Source of the DNA: a virus
Taxonomy: Duplodnaviria; Heunggongvirae; Uroviricota; Caudoviricetes
DNA length: 46,178 nucleotides
IMG/VR virus record: IMGVR_UViG_3300035492_000044
Location: 1 to 46,178 of that record
Strand: one strand, 5' to 3'
The notes under the pieces were generated by a model that saw only the letters and a program-made list of their open reading frames with translations, was not told where the DNA came from and searched no databases. This document shows, one piece after another, positions 724-41,663 of this stretch; positions within the stretch are counted from its first letter, which is position 1, and each line of letters starts with the position of its first letter. Made by a program: the position numbers and the translations under genes.

Positions 724-748
724 AACAGAACAGCGCTCAGATGCCTCG

Positions 749-779
749 AAACCCTGTTGGGGTGGAGGGCGGGCGTAGT
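749..779 (+). repeat. 31-bp direct repeat, copy 1 (AAACCCTGTTGGGGTGGAGGGCGGGCGTAGT)
   Basis: Identical to 40626-40656; intergenic, upstream of the ligase. Confidence 0.95.
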
Positions 780-872
780 ACTCCCGCTTACTGTACTGTC
801 TGCTACGCAGACCACTACTAGGAGAGGAAAGTAGGAGGATAGACAGTACAGTGAGAGGTAGTACAGACGTTT

Positions 873-9016: not shown

Positions 9017-9070
9017 ACTTTCACCTAAAATTGGTTATAGTTTGTTCTAGTTGGACTATACATAGTATAA

Positions 9071-9112
9071 TAGGTTGATTGATAGCTGATTTTCACATTA
9101 TCAATCAACCTA
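9071..9112 (-). terminator. 14-bp stem hairpin followed by TTATACT
   Basis: TAGGTTGATTGATA 9071-9084 pairs with TATCAATCAACCTA 9099-9112. Confidence 0.7.
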
Positions 9113-9236
9113 CAACGATCTTCTGTAATAGTCTGTCACTATAACGTTATCAGATCGAAGCATATCTGTAGGGCCTGGATACACAGTACAAATTTCGTCT
9201 CCAGACTGATCTCATATTGCCTCTAAATTATAAACC

Positions 9237-11159
9237 TCAGTTGATGGATCCTTTAATTACGACGAATTGTAGGGCAAGCACATCTGAGCGGCTGCCTGCA
9301 GAAACGTTAGTGATCCTGATGGCTGCTGCTCCGGATGTTACGTTTATGACCTCAATCCGATAGGACGAAGCCACAGAGCTAGCAACCAGATTTAGACCCA
9401 AGACATCGTTTGCTGTCAGGTATGAATTGTTCAGCGTGAAAGTAGCTGACGCACCGGCAGCCAAAGCAGAAACTGCTGTGGTGATACGCCCAGTTGGTTT
9501 ATTCAGAGTTACAGCAGTTGTTTTGTCTGTCGCTTGCACGACAGAGCCACCACCGCCGCTACCGTAACCAATGGAGCCAGACTCAGAAGTTACGAGATTT
9601 GCACCCTGAGAATTGAAAATCCCAGCCCACTCAGACCAGACACCATTACTTTTGTAACGCATCCAAATCCTATGATCACTCACTCGTGTAGCTATTTGTG
9701 ATCCCCATCCCGCCGAGTATTGCTGGTGAATGACGACTATAGCTACTCCAGGGGCTGGGTTATTTGCAGCACCCGAGCCATAGTAAAAACCGTTAACTGA
9801 TATATTGTTGAAGTCAGTAACTTCTGAGATAGAAAAGCCACCTAACCCAAAAGCACCAACAGTAAGCAACCGACCTGAGGTAGAGTCTGATGGTGATGCT
9901 TGTACGTTTGCTGAAGTTTGTACTTCACGCCAATCAGTCCAGACATTACTCTCTTTTACCCGTATATAAGTTGGGTAAGTCCCTGGAGTGGACGAGTATG
10001 TTTCGGTGGCCATCTGCCACGCATCTGTAGAAGACTGACCCATATGGATCATTGTGTAAGTTCTGCCGGAGACAGGGATACCTACAGCACTTCCAGAAGA
10101 GTTACGGTATATCCCGCTGACGGTTAAGGCGTTCCAGTCATTAGACAGTACGGCAGATGAGCCTAACCCAAAAGCACCAACAGTAAGCAGACGTCCTGCA
10201 GTAGCGTCTGATAGTGACGTTTGTACGTTTAATGACGTTTGTACTTCTACCCAATCACCCCAAGTGTCTGCATTATAGGATGTGCGAACCCATGTCCGAG
10301 GGAGAACAGCAGCCCCACCGTTCACGTCTGTCCAAATCTGTCTACAAATGTAGTTGTTGTATCTCTCATGTAGAACTTGCCCATTGAATCCAGATCCAGA
10401 TGGCTTAGTTCCAGTAGACACAGAGTTCTGATACGAATAAATACCAGCGGGTGTAGTTGTGGAGTCTAGGTTGGATATGGCGTTGATTGTGGATAAATTA
10501 CCCAGCCCAAAAGCACCTACCGTCAAAAGACGACCTGAAGTGGAATCCGTAGCACTAATCTGAGCCTTGCGAGTAGTGTCTGCTAAACGAGTGTAGTCAA
10601 CACATGTCCACGAGTTACCACCATTGCAATAGAACTCGGCAGTATCACCCGCTTCTGTGGTCAAATTAGATGAAGCAGGTAGTAAAAGGTTTCCAGAGTT
10701 TACTAATGGAGTAGCACCAAGAAATCTCAACTTCCTCGTCATACCAGCCTGACCAGAGCCTAGGCTAGAAATGCTGTTAGTACCACTAATAAAGATAGTG
10801 TTTGAGTTAGCAGATGCTATGTCGATAGCTGAGTTTGATGCTATAGTTACAGCAGGAGCATAATTCAATGCTCCTGTTAAAGATCCACCAGCCTTTCGAA
10901 TCATATCAGCTAAGCTGAAATATCCTAGGTCAATAATCTGATAGGTAGCGTCCTTAGAAGCAGCTTCAATCAGAGTAGCTTTTCTGGTTGATGGGTCAAT
11001 ATACCAATCCTCGCCATAGGACATGAATGCCCCATTGAAGATAAGTATAGCATCTGGACCCAGAACATCTAGAGGTAGTACTGTCTCACCACCAGTAGCA
11101 GTGTAGACATTACTAGTCCGTAGACTCTTCTGGGATGGAGTATTACCTAGATGAGGCAT
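9237..11159 (-). CDS. Tail fibre protein with three tandem knob repeats
   Basis: GRLLTVGAFGLG occurs three times, each followed by a knob ending in W..W; distinct C-terminal domain. Confidence 0.88.
   Translation of the reverse strand: MPHLGNTPSQKSLRTSNVYTATGGETVLPLDVLGPDAILIFNGAFMSYGEDWYIDPSTRKATLIEAASKDATYQIIDLGYFSLADMIRKAGGSLTGALNYAPAVTIASNSAIDIASANSNTIFISGTNSISSLGSGQAGMTRKLRFLGATPLVNSGNLLLPASSNLTTEAGDTAEFYCNGGNSWTCVDYTRLADTTRKAQISATDSTSGRLLTVGAFGLGNLSTINAISNLDSTTTPAGIYSYQNSVSTGTKPSGSGFNGQVLHERYNNYICRQIWTDVNGGAAVLPRTWVRTSYNADTWGDWVEVQTSLNVQTSLSDATAGRLLTVGAFGLGSSAVLSNDWNALTVSGIYRNSSGSAVGIPVSGRTYTMIHMGQSSTDAWQMATETYSSTPGTYPTYIRVKESNVWTDWREVQTSANVQASPSDSTSGRLLTVGAFGLGGFSISEVTDFNNISVNGFYYGSGAANNPAPGVAIVVIHQQYSAGWGSQIATRVSDHRIWMRYKSNGVWSEWAGIFNSQGANLVTSESGSIGYGSGGGGSVVQATDKTTAVTLNKPTGRITTAVSALAAGASATFTLNNSYLTANDVLGLNLVASSVASSYRIEVINVTSGAAAIRITNVSAGSRSDVLALQFVVIKGSIN
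9841..10189. repeat. Intragenic direct repeat: 28 bp identical at 9841-9868 and 10162-10189, degenerate third copy near 10501
   Basis: CCTAACCCAAAAGCACCAACAGTAAGCA twice, 321 bp apart; similarity extends about 80 bp further. Confidence 0.9.
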
Positions 11160-12952: not shown

Positions 12953-12971
12953 AGATGTCTCCAAGAGTATA

Positions 12972-12995
12972 AGGGTGAGGTATTACCCTCACCCT
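12972..12995 (-). terminator. 9-bp stem hairpin followed by TTATACT
   Basis: AGGGTGAGG 12972-12980 pairs with CCTCACCCT 12987-12995. Confidence 0.65.
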
Positions 12996-13003
12996 ACACC
13001 CAA

Positions 13004-16000
13004 TTAGCTGATTAACGTACGGATATTCTTGACTTCAGGTCTGGCAGTGTACGAGGTAGTATTCAGAACGATTCTGATAGCAGAACTATTCTGAGCTACG
13101 TTAGTAACTTCATACGTAGCTGCTTCACGACCATCACCCAGAGCTGTACCGCCAGTCTTAGACATACCAACCCAGTTGCCAGAACCATTCTTGTAGTACA
13201 CATTGATACTAGAACCAACTGGAGCGTACTCATCGATGATGACAGTAAGCTTAACTGGTGTCACAGTACCGTTAGGTATCTGGAAGGTTCTCTGAACGTA
13301 CTCAGCCGGAGTATCTACAGTACCTGCAAACAGAGCCACACCCTGCGAGATATATGGACTCAGACTTGGGTCTGAAGTGCTCATAGTAGCCCACAGTTCA
13401 ACTGGTGCGGATGCCAGAGGAATCGGAGGTAGAACCGTATTTCCACTCAGGGCTAGATCGTAGGATACCGATCCAACTTTCAGAGTGTATTTCAGGTTAG
13501 TACCTGCCGGGATGTTAGCTACGGAGCCAACATTGAACTCGGTGGCATTGTTCGGGTAGTCACTCATGGAGAGGATCTTGTAAGACCCGGACGTAGCATA
13601 GGTCTTAGCATGAAGTCTCATGGTGAGGTCTTCGTCCTGAACCGGAGTCCAGGTTCTCTCGTTAGCAGAGAGAAGCATTACACCTTCTAGTACCTGGTTA
13701 GAGATCCACTTAGCATTAGCACTATCGTACTCGCCGACTCTAGCTGTAGCTACCTTACCTTGGAAGTTGGCAGTAGATACAATAACAGCATATTCACTGC
13801 CATTATAGACTCTACGAGGAACTTTGAAGTTAATCTTGTTCCATCCAATAACACACTGATTCGGAGACAAAGACCCGATAGCCAGTCTTTGTGAAGAGTC
13901 TGGGATACCGAGAGTCACTGGAACGAGCTTAATGAACAGAGTGTTAGTTGGTAGTTCAGTCAGGAATACTGATACTGCAGACAGATCCGCGTCTTTGGTA
14001 ATCAGGAATGTCTGAGCTACAGGGTCAGCTCCCAGAGGAATCTCACCACCGTTCCAGTAGTCCTTGGAGAAGTCTCCACCAGCACCATTGTACTTAGCGT
14101 CATCACGACCACTAACAGTAAGAGCAGCCTTAGCAGTAGCCTGGGAAGTCAGACCAGTAGCGGTTACCTCATAAACTCCGTACGGAGTTCTATCTGGAAC
14201 AGTGATAGCTACACTAAGAGCTCCATTGACGTTAGCAGTTCCGCTAGCTACTACCTTACCTCTGAAGCGTACTTGAACAGTCTCACCAGATTGGAATCGG
14301 GCTAGCTGGACAGTAGTCTTCGCTGATCTAGGCAGGAAAGTACCATGCCACCACCACCACCAAGCATTGCCCTTAATCACAGAAGGAGCTAGAACAATAT
14401 CAGCTTGCAGAGATGCACCATTACCAGCATACGGGTTAATTCTCTGAGACTTAGTTCTGAACTGGTTCTGGAAGACGATGTATTCAGTAGCTTGAGGTAA
14501 GCTGAACGTCTGAGACACGTTCTCTTCAATGTCAGTCATATTCGACGCATTGTACAGAGTGGCATCAACGTTGATAGCGTTCTGAACTACACCCGCATCA
14601 CGCATTTCGTCGTTAGCCAATGAGTCAACAACGATGCCTTTCTTAGTAGTCACTGGATCGTGGCCACTAGCTACGTCTTTCAGAGACAGCTGGGCGATGT
14701 TGTATTCGATAGAGTCCAGTCGATCTCCCATGACTTTCATTTCAGCGAAAGTCATCATTCTAACAGTGGAGTCCTGGTCGATAACGGGGTCTGATCCGAA
14801 AGATACAGTCACAGTACCAATTGACAGGAAACCATCATTAGGAGTCTGGTTAGGTTGTACTTGACTCGGAGTTCCTGGGATGCCTCTTGAGATCTGAACG
14901 TTGCCATCTCTGTCTAAGAGAACTCTATCAACACGACTCAGGTAGAAATCGTAGTCAATGTACATAGTTGAGTTATGTACGAGAGCGGCAACATCTCCGG
15001 CATCTAGAGTGAGGTTATTACCAGTGAAAGTAGCCGAGAAGGTGTCGATATACTGATAAGTTACAGTATAGCTGGAACCTGGGCTAGGCTCAGCTCCTGC
15101 AAGAGACCAATCTACTGAGTCACCAGTCTGCTTGAAGTCAACGTCCTTAATGTAGGTAGTACCACCCTGAACCACAGAGGTTATCATCAGAACTGGAGTA
15201 TTGGACAGTAGATCCTGACCACCAGAAGCTGCTCCTCTAGTTACAGAGTGAGTAATAACCTTAGTACCAGTTACCTCAGTAATAGCCATTAGCGGAGTAT
15301 TACGAAGAGCGTAGCTACCAACTCCGTTCTGGAATACTATCGGTTCTGCGGATACTGAGCGGAAGTCAGTAATCGGATCCAGTGAGATGATACTCTCTAG
15401 CTGAAACTGCTTCTCAGTACCAGCAATACGACCTATGCCTGACGACATGGTCATATCTACAGTGCCAGTATCTTCGTTTACTTCCAAGAATGCCAGATCA
15501 AGGCCATTAACAACGTACGATCCATGGACACCGTTGTCATACTTGGAAATGGCTCTTCCAATAGCGTTGCTGTCAGAACTAGTAGACGCTGAACTGGAGA
15601 TTACAGTGCCTTCAGATACCGACATTACCGGGAAGAATACCTCATCGGCCGATACCTGAGTAGAGACCTTCCAAGTACCAAGTCTCTTCTCACGATATGC
15701 ACCGTCTCCACCAAAGTGAGGAGACTGAGGATCCTGCTCGAACAGGTCTATATCGTCATTACCAGTTATCAGTAGGCTCTTGACTGCGACACCGATAACA
15801 GATACACCGACCTCAGGAATAGTGATGGACCCTGCGGCACAGTTGGTCGGAATACCTTCAAGAGCTACAACTGCGTTGTTCAGAGAGATGCTAGTAGTAG
15901 AGAGGCTAGTTACCTCTCCGCCTGAAATGATAGTACCGTTAGATACTAGGTGCTTACTGACCTTAGCTAGAAGGTCAATAATCATATCTTGCATCTCGTT

Positions 16001-32618: not shown

Positions 32619-33260
32619 TTAGCTAAGGGTAGTGATACCGGCTTTAACTAGTCTTTCGGCCAGTTCTTCCTTAGTACCATAGGTATCTAGGCCTTGCTTA
32701 GTACAGGCTTCGACTAGGTCCGGTTTCTTGTTGCTCTCAGCCAGGATCTTAACTACTTCTGGATCGAAAGCGGTAGTCTCCACCTTCTTCTCTTCTTCAG
32801 ATTCTTCGGAAGACTCCGATTTATCTTCAGAGCTAGAAGATGTATTTTCAGACTCAGAAGACTTATTGACATCTTCAGCCGAATCTTCTGAACTGGTTTC
32901 AGCAGTTTCAGTAGACTCATCTTTAGACTTGTCTTCTGAATTCTGTTGATTATCTGAAAGATCATTGAGCTGCTCATCTTTCTTACCTCCAGCATTGTCC
33001 GAGAGGTCTGCCAGAGGATCAACAAGGCCGGTACCTTGATCATCATGGCCTTCTAGAGCCAGCTCTGCTTCTTCATCAGAAATCTTGGAGTAAGATAGCT
33101 TCTCATCAAATACTTTGAGAACTTTCTCATAATTCGAGGCTAGTTCTACAGGAGCGAATGCTCTCTTGGCCTCTGCACGAAGTACGACTTGGTCTGGAGT
33201 GACTAGCAATCCAGATATGGTTACGCACTTCGATGTCAAATTCGTAACTAGGACTTTCAT
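32619..33260 (-). CDS. Acidic low-complexity protein with a C-terminal SAP-like motif
   Basis: S/E/D-rich linker; KKPDLVEACTKQGLDTYGTKEELAERL. Confidence 0.65.
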   Translation of the reverse strand: MKVLVTNLTSKCVTISGLLVTPDQVVLRAEAKRAFAPVELASNYEKVLKVFDEKLSYSKISDEEAELALEGHDDQGTGLVDPLADLSDNAGGKKDEQLNDLSDNQQNSEDKSKDESTETAETSSEDSAEDVNKSSESENTSSSSEDKSESSEESEEEKKVETTAFDPEVVKILAESNKKPDLVEACTKQGLDTYGTKEELAERLVKAGITTLS

Positions 33261-33278
33261 CAGAAAATACCTCTAGTA

Positions 33279-33310
33279 TAATGGAGGGTGGGATATCCCA
33301 CCCTCCATTA
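33279..33310 (-). terminator. Perfect 32-bp palindrome after the major capsid gene
   Basis: TAATGGAGGGTGGGAT|ATCCCACCCTCCATTA. Confidence 0.8.
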
Positions 33311-33322
33311 GTTAGCTAGCTA

Positions 33323-34723
33323 TTAAGCACCGATGGTGAGCTTAGTAGCCAGAGCGCCGTTCAGCGAAGTCATACCAGCCCATACACCAGCGGCCTGAGT
33401 CTGACGGAACGGGTTGTTCACGGACTGAACGGTATTGGTAACCATCAGCGGCATGAACGGAGAGTACGCCAGCGGAGCGTTGAAGTAGTTCTGCGGATTG
33501 GAGATCAGGATCAGCTCGTTATCCGGGATCACGTTGGTAGCACGAACAACAGGGATGTTGTCATAGGTACCGAACAGAGCGACGGAAGTCGAAGCACCAG
33601 CATCACCACCCTGGAACTCTGGCATACCACGCAGAGTGGCAGCAGCAGTACGACCAGCGATGATGCGGTTAACTGTACCCATACCAGTATTGGCATGCAG
33701 AACCGATTCAGCCATAGCCAGCTGATCAACGAAGGTCAGCTTGTGTTCAGCGTAGGATACACCAGCATCCGGAGTCTTGCTCCAGTCAGTGTTACCAACC
33801 AGGTTAGCGTAGATACGCTTGATAGCCTGGGTGTTCAGAACGTTGGTGATCTCGTTGCTCAGGTCAGCAGCTACCTCATCAACAGCCGAGCGACCGAAGC
33901 GCTGACCGAATGCGAAGTTAGCGAAAGCACCAACATCAGCAGCCAGTGCCCAGATTTCAGCACGGATGTCTTTGGTGATCAGACGACCTTCGATCTTCTC
34001 CAGAGACTCAGCAGCATCGACGTCTACGTCGTAGATAGCCTGAGCTACCTTGCCAGTGCCTGGATCAGCAGTGAAGGTGATGTCGAAGGCACCAGTCTGG
34101 TAGTTGATAGTACCAGAGAAGCCGAAGCCTAGGATCTGACCCTTACCGTTGTCCTTACCATTACCAACGCCAGGGACGTTGATTTCAAACATGTACGGAC
34201 GTACCGGTACAGAGGTCAGGTTACCCGAGTACTGTGTGTCAGCAGCTACAGTGGTGAACAGAGCAGCAGACTTACGCTGGCTACCCAGAGAACCATCGCC
34301 CAGAGAATCCAGAGTCAGAGCATCACGAATTACTTGACCCTTCGAGTAACCGCCAGAAGCCTGAGAAGCCAGGATCTGCTTGTAGTACACGATGCCATGT
34401 TCTTCAGCCATCGGCTGAATCGAGCACAGCAGAGGCAGAATCGAGCTACCTACGGAAGCAGCAATTACGTCCAGAGCAATCTGGGGAATAGCACCCAGAG
34501 AGCCCAGCTGACCTTGCGATTCGCAGAAGTCACGGTAGTTGCTGAACTGGTCCAGCTGCTGGCCCATAGCCAGAATTTCGTACGGAGATACGGATTCCTG
34601 GACACGAGTCAGGATGGAAGCGCCCTGGTAGGCATCGATCTGGTCAGTGTACTTTTCCAGATACATGTTAGCCATGCTATCAACAGCAGCTTCGTTGATA
34701 TCAGCCATAGTGCGAAGTTTCAT
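33323..34723 (-). CDS. Major capsid protein (T4 gp23-type HK97 fold)
   Basis: IQPM....G.VYY, I.AE...L.A, EI...LN...I, YSPFMPL; strongest codon bias in the window. Confidence 0.93.
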   Translation of the reverse strand: MKLRTMADINEAAVDSMANMYLEKYTDQIDAYQGASILTRVQESVSPYEILAMGQQLDQFSNYRDFCESQGQLGSLGAIPQIALDVIAASVGSSILPLLCSIQPMAEEHGIVYYKQILASQASGGYSKGQVIRDALTLDSLGDGSLGSQRKSAALFTTVAADTQYSGNLTSVPVRPYMFEINVPGVGNGKDNGKGQILGFGFSGTINYQTGAFDITFTADPGTGKVAQAIYDVDVDAAESLEKIEGRLITKDIRAEIWALAADVGAFANFAFGQRFGRSAVDEVAADLSNEITNVLNTQAIKRIYANLVGNTDWSKTPDAGVSYAEHKLTFVDQLAMAESVLHANTGMGTVNRIIAGRTAAATLRGMPEFQGGDAGASTSVALFGTYDNIPVVRATNVIPDNELILISNPQNYFNAPLAYSPFMPLMVTNTVQSVNNPFRQTQAAGVWAGMTSLNGALATKLTIGA

Positions 34724-39910: not shown

Positions 39911-40370
39911 TTAATCTCCCACCCAGCTCTTTGAGTAGATGGCTAGCCATATCACGAAGATCCCGGCTATTCTGAGAGGATTCACCATCAGCACCACCAG
40001 CAAGTGTCTCTTGAAGACGAGGCAGAATAGACTGCATCTTAATCTCAACACCGGTCCAGTCAGTGCTATTGACAGTACCTTTAATGAAGTTAGTGCAAGT
40101 CCCGATTGTACTAAGAGCGAGTTGGTACGTCTCTATCTTATCTCTCGGCGACAAGTGTGCAATAATTTCAGGGTCGAAGATATCTTCTTCGAGCTTCTCT
40201 AGGATGGCAGTAAGTCTTTTGACTCTACTACCCTGAATCTCGGCCAGGCCTAGCAGGAGAACACTCAAGCCTACTTCTTTGATTTGAAGTGCTGCTATAT
40301 TGAGTTCAGCTGCTGCATCCTTCTTAGATTCAGCTAGAGCTAATCCCTTATCTAAAGTATCTTGGGACAT
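39903..40370 (-). CDS. terS: Probable terminase small subunit, 155 aa
   Basis: Helical protein directly upstream of terL; ATG at 40370 with an AAGGAGG RBS. Confidence 0.6.
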   Translation of the reverse strand: MSQDTLDKGLALAESKKDAAAELNIAALQIKEVGLSVLLLGLAEIQGSRVKRLTAILEKLEEDIFDPEIIAHLSPRDKIETYQLALSTIGTCTNFIKGTVNSTDWTGVEIKMQSILPRLQETLAGGADGESSQNSRDLRDMASHLLKELGGRLNG

Positions 40371-40765
40371 CAATATGTCCTCCTTGGGGAACGTGCGCAC
40401 CGCTTTGCACCTGCGCCTTACAAGGTAATAAAAACCACATCTAAAACACCCCTGCAAGCTTCTGCAAGGCGTCTGGAGACGCTCTGGAGTTATTTTCAAA
40501 GTAACTACCCCAATTTCTAATTTACAGAGGTGCCACAAGGCTCGCAGGACCTCTAACACGCCCGTTTTTGAAAATGCAAACTATTTTTCTGTTTCTGAGT
40601 GGAATCCCGACGTTTTCATGTCTCCAAACCCTGTTGGGGTGGAGGGCGGGCGTAGTGCTCCAAGTTACTTAATACTACTACTAACACTACTAGGAAGAGA
40701 GGAAAGAAGAGGATAGAAGAGTAGGTGAAGAGTAGATACAGTACACTAATCAATGAGGAATAGAT
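40371..40765. promoter_or_regulatory. Divergent control region between the late and replication operons
   Basis: Largest non-coding gap; A/T tracts, phased repeats, a near-palindrome and the 31-bp repeat. Confidence 0.7.
40626..40656 (+). repeat. 31-bp direct repeat, copy 2
   Basis: Identical to 749-779. Confidence 0.95.
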
Positions 40766-41086: not shown

Positions 41087-41619
41087 TAGATAAAACATTC
41101 TTCGTAAATGTTACTGATCCTCTGGCTAAGTATATGCCAAAGTCATCTGAACCTGCTAGTCAGACTCAGACCGTATTCAACATATGGAAGCTGAAGCTGA
41201 TTAATGAGTTCAAGATAAACTTCTATCAGTTTCAGCATTCTCTATATATCCTGGCAATCGCTGGAGATGATGTAGTATATGGGGTCTGGGATGTAAAGGA
41301 TAATATTGGATACTTGTTCTACAAGCCGTTCAAGATATCTCCGAGTATCAACATCCCAGACGACATAACTAAGCACATTCCAGAACACCACATGTCTCTC
41401 GGTAACCAGGACATATTCGATGTAAATACAAGATCAGAACATCTTAAGAGCATCGAGTATGAAGCCAGGCAAATTCTTCAGAAGATGTCAATATCCCCCG
41501 AACACCGTGGCAAGACTCCTACTGAGATGGTAGTTAGATCTATCCAGCTGGCATCTGAGTTTGATAAGCAGTTCAAGGATTTCTCTGATCTGCATAACTC
41601 AAATAGAGCCGACGGTTAG
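41083..41619 (+). CDS. Hypothetical protein, 178 aa
   Basis: ATGA overlap with the upstream gene; no motif recognised. Confidence 0.7.
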   Translation: MIDKTFFVNVTDPLAKYMPKSSEPASQTQTVFNIWKLKLINEFKINFYQFQHSLYILAIAGDDVVYGVWDVKDNIGYLFYKPFKISPSINIPDDITKHIPEHHMSLGNQDIFDVNTRSEHLKSIEYEARQILQKMSISPEHRGKTPTEMVVRSIQLASEFDKQFKDFSDLHNSNRADG

Positions 41620-41663
41620 TTACGTCCAGACCCTGTTAGGGTAAGGCCGAATTGGAGATTCTC

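Follow-up and report, generated by a model that had tools for sequence, protein, structure and literature searches.

A 31-nucleotide repeat as part of a probable promoter-plus-leader cassette carried four times by a 110-kb phage genome

Genome Layout and the Repeated Element

The window analyzed here, a stretch of 46,178 nucleotides, comprises bases 1-46178 of a 110,178-bp phage contig of IMG/VR. Near its left end, in the gap between a stop codon at 721-723 and the ATG of a ligase gene at 926, lies a block of 31 nt (749-779) that recurs without a single difference at 40626-40656, both copies being on the + strand. Simple arithmetic gives about 2e-10 exact pairs of this length expected by chance in 46 kb. 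The first-pass annotation had described the block as an exact duplication within a longer, degenerate element made up of several smaller shared blocks, and both parts of this description are borne out: a global alignment of 730-866 with 40607-40743 (~137 nt) yields 108 identities, or 84% of the ungapped columns, and further exact blocks occur at 813/40685 (11 nt), 822/40697 (10 nt) and 835/40709 (9 nt).

The end of the contig (110004-110178) repeats positions 1-175 of the window over 175 nt with one mismatch, and this terminal repeat indicates a genome closed into a circle of about 110,003 bp; the completeness estimate of 68% and the "linear" label that the record carries look wrong. A circle of this length is the size of cultured relatives (110-116 kb). 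Read as a circle, the genome has a single + strand gene block of 74.6 kb, which begins at 40.6 kb, crosses the contig end, stops at 5.1 kb and holds replication, nucleotide metabolism, DNA modification, tRNA, RNA polymerase, ligase and ParM genes. The two + strand operons that the repeat was at first thought to head are thus an appearance created by the point at which the contig was opened. The virion genes form a - strand block of 35 kb (5.1-40.6 kb). The + strand block is headed by the right-hand copy of the repeat, which sits in the divergent gap adjoining the virion block, and the left-hand copy lies about 4.4 kb upstream of the end of the + strand block. For two genes in the neighborhood of the right-hand copy, the likely start codon is not the one called from the longest ORF: the first - strand gene probably begins at the ATG whose complement is found at 40372-40374, behind an AAGGAGG box, a choice that would leave a divergent gap of 391 bp, and the helicase gene probably begins at ATG 41664, behind a GGAG, rather than at TTG 41652.

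A Motif Family on the + Strand

When short pieces of the repeat were searched against the entire contig, many partial copies came up, every one of them on the + strand, and the alignment of these copies led to a two-part motif of 38 nt. The 31-nt block consists of the last 19 nt of this motif (positions 20-38, its 3' half) together with the next 12 nt. In a PWM scan, the 110-kb genome contains 29 copies of the motif scoring 35-50 bits, against at most 13 bits (13.1) in 20 shuffled genomes. All 29 are on the + strand, with none in the - strand virion block (5.1-40.6 kb). By crude gene calls at least 26 of the 29 fall in gaps, though the noncoding share of the + strand block is only 11%, and the 3' end of the motif is usually 6-62 nt away from a start codon.

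The window holds four members of this family, at 730, 864, 40607 and 41609. The two that overlap the 31-nt repeat occupy 730-767 and 40607-40644, score 47.4 and 45.1 bits against the family profile, and lie in gaps, pointing at + strand genes; the latter is the first motif of the + strand block. A second, canonical motif of the A type (864-901, 41.7 bits) is placed directly before the ligase gene, and an ordinary class A motif (41609-41646, 37.9 bits) precedes the helicase gene. This last copy lacks the leader that follows the repeat (its leader scores -19 against that of the copy at 40607), which shows that the family extends beyond the duplicated element.

Two classes can be told apart by their upstream box and by a T or an A before GTT. 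Class A, with 20 members, reads TG-T-TAGGGT and has a weak upstream box, whereas the nine members of class B have no TG and a better -35-like box, CTTACA, 16-17 bp upstream; the phage polymerase genes are preceded by class B motifs. At position 30 of the motif (GTT-A-GGG) an A is found in 26 of the 29 copies. The exceptions carry a G and include both copies of the repeat, at 759 (where the G replaces the family A in a class A downstream half) and at 40636, as well as a third copy outside the window, at 55160. A GC hairpin trails the motif at 730 and is found in the same place in many other family members. A different hairpin was considered for the motif core, of the N4 promoter type or a boxB-like RNA hairpin (ACCC-loop-GGGT), and rejected, since just 11 of the 29 copies allow full pairing and the hairpin is mostly broken in class B.

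The gaps of the - strand virion block (9017-9240, 12960-13010 and 33258-33326) look different, with a GC hairpin and then a TTATACT-type box a short way upstream of the following gene. This arrangement, distinct from the + strand motif, is a candidate late-promoter or terminator-promoter signal.

Organization of the Four Cassettes

The repeat had been reported as a pair. Both copies in the window are confirmed, and two more lie beyond it, which brings the total to four; they begin at 730 (c1), 40607 (c2), 55131 (c3) and 79209 (c4) and are each ~135 nt long. Every copy consists of a family motif and a leader of ~100 nt that, among the 29 family members, is common to these four only: aligned to the leader of c2, those of c1, c4 and c3 score +85, +72 and +39, and the other 25 copies -33 to +3. 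Similarly, on the + strand GAGAGGAAA and the G-tract pattern are confined to the four cassettes. Three of them, c1, c2 and c3, are the G variants at motif position 30, and c4 keeps the A; c4 is also intergenic once its ORFs are properly read.

The leader has a constant order of parts, in which a G-rich hairpin arm is followed by a G-poor, ACT-rich spacer and then by a polypurine, Shine-Dalgarno-like tract that holds GAGAGGAAA and GGAG/GAGG. The last five bases of the G tract pair with a C-rich arm 9-13 nt downstream. In c1, whose leader spans 768-863 as judged from alignment, inverted repeat, fold and purine ranking, the G-rich tract is at 759-773, the arms of the hairpin are at 769-773 and 783-787, the spacer is at 788-819 and the polypurine tract is at 820-843. 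In c2 (leader 40645-40765) the G-rich tract reaches to 40650, the spacer is at 40657-40690, and the purine-rich part continues to about 40742, including a pure polypurine run of 22 nt from 40692 that is the longest purine run on the + strand of the genome.

What stands behind the leader differs among the copies. Ordinary genes of this genome have GGAG(A) 6-9 nt before the ATG. In c3 and c4 the purine tract ends 3-7 nt before a start codon, at Shine-Dalgarno distance. In c2, 45 extra bases and a second Shine-Dalgarno sequence (40755-40758) separate the tract from the gene, which starts at ATG 40766 and encodes an HhH_8-domain protein. In c1 the tract contains two Shine-Dalgarno-like GGAG motifs with no start codon behind them; instead, the canonical promoter motif at 864-901 follows and adjoins the ligase gene, which has its own Shine-Dalgarno GGAG at 917-920 and its ATG at 926. 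A second promoter motif likewise stands behind c3, at 55289. The motif at 864-901 has an altered 3' end, so that 878-884 pairs with 894-900 ahead of a T-rich stretch, and a promoter motif and a terminator-like hairpin thereby overlap.

History of the Copies

Pairwise comparison of the cassettes gives exact blocks of 31 nt between c1 and c2, 29 nt between c1 and c3, 25 nt between c2 and c3, and 21 nt each between c1 and c4 (777/79256) and between c2 and c4 (40691/79292). The pattern is reticulate, with no single tree that would account for it, and is of the kind that patchy gene conversion among paralogous copies would produce. In c3, the ATG and the 14 nt behind it match the start of the gene behind c2 (40766) at 16 of 17 positions, and the relic frame that begins there has 30 codons (contig 55259-55351) and runs through the next promoter motif. 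Judged by its sequence, c3 looks like a copy of a c2-like unit, including the start of its gene, from which deletion across two short direct repeats has removed a piece. Together, the reticulate exact blocks and the relic gene start point to recombination between copies and suggest that the cassettes spread by duplication and still exchange segments. A change peculiar to c1 is an inverted repeat of 24 nt (778-801 and 841-864, 88% complementary) around a loop of 39 nt that holds the Shine-Dalgarno-like tract; 841-864 is an inverted copy of 778-801, which explains why a strong fold is found in c1 alone.

Relatives and Known Systems

The first-pass annotation proposed a search for the element in relatives, and no near relative was present in the collections searched. 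Neither copy in the window had a blastn match among GenBank phages, exact-motif scans of IMG/VR gave 0 and 1 match, as expected from chance only, and neither the helicase nor the ligase led to a relative in a related-locus search, the best match of the helicase in a large protein collection having 43% identity. A metagenome scan with an 18-mer of the motif returned 30 loci, none of which has the full motif or more than one copy, and these are read as chance. Among them is a set of unrelated metagenome contigs of 57-58% GC in which the 18-mer has G runs behind it and, in front, a 10-mer that is also found at 55289; with one copy per 12-kb locus, this too is read as chance. Acinetobacter phage Ab1-TPeters, whose helicase shares 38% amino-acid identity, has a related core that keeps the CTTA-N12 spacing and has a G-rich arm and its C-rich partner behind it.

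Within the genome, the nearest comparison is the phage's own 38-nt family, whose profile, strand, placement before genes and trailing GC hairpin c1 and c2 share; the cassettes differ from it by the G at the otherwise invariant A in three of the four and by the ~100-nt leader missing from the other 25 copies. The motif also bears some likeness to the sigma-70 extended -10 element (TGnTATAAT), through the TG-T-TAGGGT of class A and the -35-like CTTACA of class B. It departs from this element in having GGG in the middle of the hexamer and ~38 conserved nt, far beyond what host promoters conserve; moreover, c1-c3 have a G at the would-be -11 position, and several copies in Ab1-TPeters have a T there.

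The closest described system is the PeSL (promoter-early stem-loop) cassettes of the T4-type phages RB49 and phi1, which are present in many copies per genome and recombine with one another (Arbiol et al., 2010; PMC2839356). In a PeSL, an intergenic promoter that matches the Escherichia coli sigma-70 consensus and has an AT-rich upstream region is combined with a G-then-C stem-loop close to where transcription starts, and the unit ends with the Shine-Dalgarno sequence and start codon that serve the gene behind it. PeSLs are found on either side of ORFan genes, in hyperplastic regions, and both terminator activity and the formation of mini-circles have been demonstrated (PMC2839356). The cassettes described here are similarly repeated, intergenic units of promoter type with a G-then-C stem-loop near the motif (769-773 and 783-787 in c1), and a Shine-Dalgarno sequence with the start codon of the gene behind it forms the 3' end of c3 and c4, follows a 45-nt insert in c2 and is absent in c1. 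The occurrence of many copies per genome is a further shared feature, and in this phage the reticulate blocks and the relic gene start point to exchange between copies. Unlike PeSLs, the cassettes have a motif that does not match the sigma-70 consensus, a much longer leader, and a position ahead of replication, ligase and DNA-modification blocks rather than beside ORFans.

Promoter Function and Proposed Mechanism

Taken together, the 31-bp repeat is probably the best-preserved piece of a ~135-nt promoter-plus-leader cassette that the genome carries four times, ahead of blocks of early genes. It is the position of the 38-nt motif, its strand and its copy number that suggest a promoter function, and the cassettes would then be mainly a sub-type of the 29-copy promoter-type motif of this phage and no new kind of element. 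Among the options raised at first, that of a phage-specific promoter fits a repeat that overlaps a 29-copy + strand motif standing before + strand genes.

In the mechanism that we propose, an RNA polymerase would bind the 38-nt motif and start transcription at, or a few bases after, GTT(A/G)GGGTGG. This polymerase could be a phage-directed enzyme or, given that a CTTA-type box lies ~17 bp upstream of TGnTAnnnT in a sigma-70-like geometry, the host holoenzyme. The G-rich start of the transcript and the C-rich arm 9-13 nt downstream would form a promoter-proximal hairpin, which might stabilize the 5' end or, as PeSL cassettes do, attenuate read-through. Ribosomes for the first gene would then be loaded by the G-poor, ACU-rich stretch together with the polypurine tract and its GGAG/GAGG motifs. 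This gene is directly behind c3 and c4 and behind a 45-nt insert in c2, and c1 would have lost it; in c1 the resident second promoter would serve the ligase gene. The proposed order of the unit is thus promoter, 5' hairpin, unstructured spacer and strong ribosome-loading tract. The copies would have arisen by duplication of a c2-like unit, with patches still being swapped by recombination, and such exchange would explain why the 31-nt block is identical.

Two models may be considered for the way in which the motif is read. The first is a promoter of sigma-70 type, in which class A would combine the TG with a weak upstream box and class B would do without the TG by means of CTTACA. A trade-off between the extended -10 TG and the strength of the -35 box is typical of sigma-70 promoters. 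The occurrence of class B motifs before the phage polymerase genes and the different, candidate late signal of the - strand point to the host RNA polymerase, perhaps with a phage factor. The genome encodes a beta' domain, and no beta, sigma-70 region 2 or T7-type polymerase is recognizable in it. No sigma-70 consensus promoter of the TTGACA-N17-TATAAT type was found near either copy in the window, the scan at c2 covering 40200-40765 on the + strand. In this first model the hairpins would straddle the start site and would stop only read-through transcripts, as in PeSL cassettes. In the second model the A or G at motif position 30 would be the start nucleotide. This position is always a purine in this phage, and several hairpins begin exactly there; Ab1-TPeters does not keep the A, having a T at this place in several copies.

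The G variant also speaks against the promoter reading. At the -11 base of a sigma-70-type promoter a G should cripple activity, and three of the four cassettes carry a G at the would-be -11; yet no motif other than c2, with this G, lies ahead of its two genes, which would be odd if the G abolished activity and counts for the second model. In a test against the sigma-70 extended -10 element the family consensus fits and c1 and c2 do not (TG-T-TGGGGT, with the G at the -11 place). In addition, c1 and c3 are each trailed by a second canonical promoter and attached to no real gene, and they could be inactive relics. Finally, the very long polypurine tract and the G clusters exceed the needs of a ribosome-binding site.

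Alternative Explanations

The excess of purines and of G clusters leads to a different reading, in which the four cassettes are promoter-primed R-loop replication origins of the T4 oriF/oriG type and a purine-rich RNA held on the template primes the leading strand. Phage T4 has several origins, each with a promoter and a downstream unwinding element; oriF (uvsY) and oriG (gene 34) are reportedly built, according to work of the Kreuzer laboratory, from a middle promoter and such an element, with an R-loop as the primer. G clusters are known to initiate R-loops, and purine-rich RNA on a pyrimidine-rich DNA template makes the most stable hybrids. The cassettes have this R-loop-favouring composition, with G clusters and purine tracts on the non-template strand right after the promoter. 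They also stand out in the genome as a whole, since c3, c2 and c1 are its top three G4Hunter windows (1.72, 1.60 and 1.56), c2, c4, c1 and c3 hold its most purine-rich 50-nt windows on the + strand except for one coding stretch, and c2 (22 nt) and c4 (20 nt) hold its two longest pure purine runs on that strand. That c1 and c3 drive no gene of their own would suit an origin as well.

With T4 oriF/oriG the cassettes share a promoter followed by a strand-asymmetric segment and several copies per genome, but the segment is G- and purine-rich rather than AT-rich and the likeness rests on composition; no AT-rich unwinding element was identified. The option of an origin or priming site had already been named in the first-pass annotation, and the minimum of the cumulative GC skew, at 40631, falls inside c2. 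This minimum is, however, the point at which gene orientation switches, and it therefore has no independent weight as evidence for an origin; the slope of the skew shows no further break within the + strand block, and an element present at four places is not one unique origin signal. Furthermore, the purine tract of c3 and c4 ends 3-7 nt before a start codon, like a ribosome-binding site, and a C-rich arm pairs with the G run, an arrangement that other family members and Ab1-TPeters also have. We consider replication origins of this type unlikely, and just as unlikely the more particular version that joins a lineage-specific promoter to a purine primer resembling a retroviral PPT in a phage with hypermodified thymine. 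Four copies also rule out a pac site for c2.

A G-quadruplex, formed by the DNA or by the 5' end of the RNA and tuning the transcription or translation of the four units, is quite improbable. The three G-variant copies do give the three highest G4Hunter scores in 110 kb, and closely spaced sets of three G3 tracts are found on the + strand in the cassettes alone. The canonical motif of four G3+ tracts 1-7 nt apart is nonetheless absent from the whole genome, the cassettes holding only three G3 tracts and one G2 tract. The G run consists largely of the GGGTGG of the motif and a hairpin arm whose C-rich partner is retained, and the promoter motif at 46208 ranks seventh in G4Hunter for the same cause. 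A promoter-proximal hairpin, with the run as its 5' arm, accounts for it better than a G-quadruplex does.

Very unlikely, too, is a structured RNA in the leader, whether a small RNA or an RNase III processing site. It draws on the long hairpin of c1 (778-801 with 841-864; -41.7 kcal/mol, z -3.4), which has the length of an RNase III substrate; c1 is the only copy that beats its shuffles, with c2 (z -0.6) and c4 (z 0.07) folding no better than theirs. The consensus fold of the four copies reaches only -3.65 kcal/mol, and the check for covariation that had been proposed for them returned essentially none. Rfam 15 has no match at the gathering score, and none on the elements at E up to 1, no terminator follows, and the hairpin considered for the motif core can pair fully in just 11 of the 29 copies. 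The earlier suggestion of an ncRNA is supported by neither a family match nor a common fold.

That the duplication is an artefact, a repeated k-mer having joined unrelated pieces of a metagenome assembly or having been copied, is highly improbable, even though 31 nt is a common k-mer size. The flanks of the repeat are similar yet diverged (84% over 137 nt), two additional diverged copies exist, and the contig closes on itself through the 175-nt overlap at a length that matches its cultured relatives; an exchange at the repeats would split it into two circles, neither of them a whole phage. Translation of a leader peptide has next to no probability: the open frames at 741-821 and 40618-40716 are present as first described, each with an in-frame ATG, and 16 of their first 17 codons are similar, but a ribosome-binding site is lacking in all four copies, the ATG is replaced by ATC in c3, where a TAG stop comes after 11 codons, and c4 has its ATG in a different frame. 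The ATG, moreover, falls in the variable spacer of the motif, and an ATG happens to occur there in several further members of the family. A LexA-box reading of the TACTGTAC pieces was rejected as well, there being no CTGT-N8-ACAG.

Implications for a Little-Studied Phage Lineage

The lineage of RP13-, IME392-, EP_H11- and Ab1-TPeters-like phages, with its thymine-modified DNA and split beta' gene, has barely been studied, and no paper on its promoters was found in the literature. For the promoter-plus-leader cassette, the natural G variant at the most conserved purine of the motif offers a direct way to tell a -11-type melting base from a start nucleotide. If promoter units duplicate and exchange segments in this phage as the copies suggest, module shuffling of the PeSL type would extend to a phage outside the T4 group, and the cassettes mark, in addition, four candidate R-loop or origin sites. 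Should they prove to be only a promoter with a strong leader, they would still be useful for annotation and as a candidate expression part, if unsurprising. Elsewhere in the genome, tandem promoter motifs are common, as at 50974/51376 and 108156/108513, and the tRNA island has four class A motifs (contig 82073, 82332, 82496 and 87680), three of them within 450 nt.
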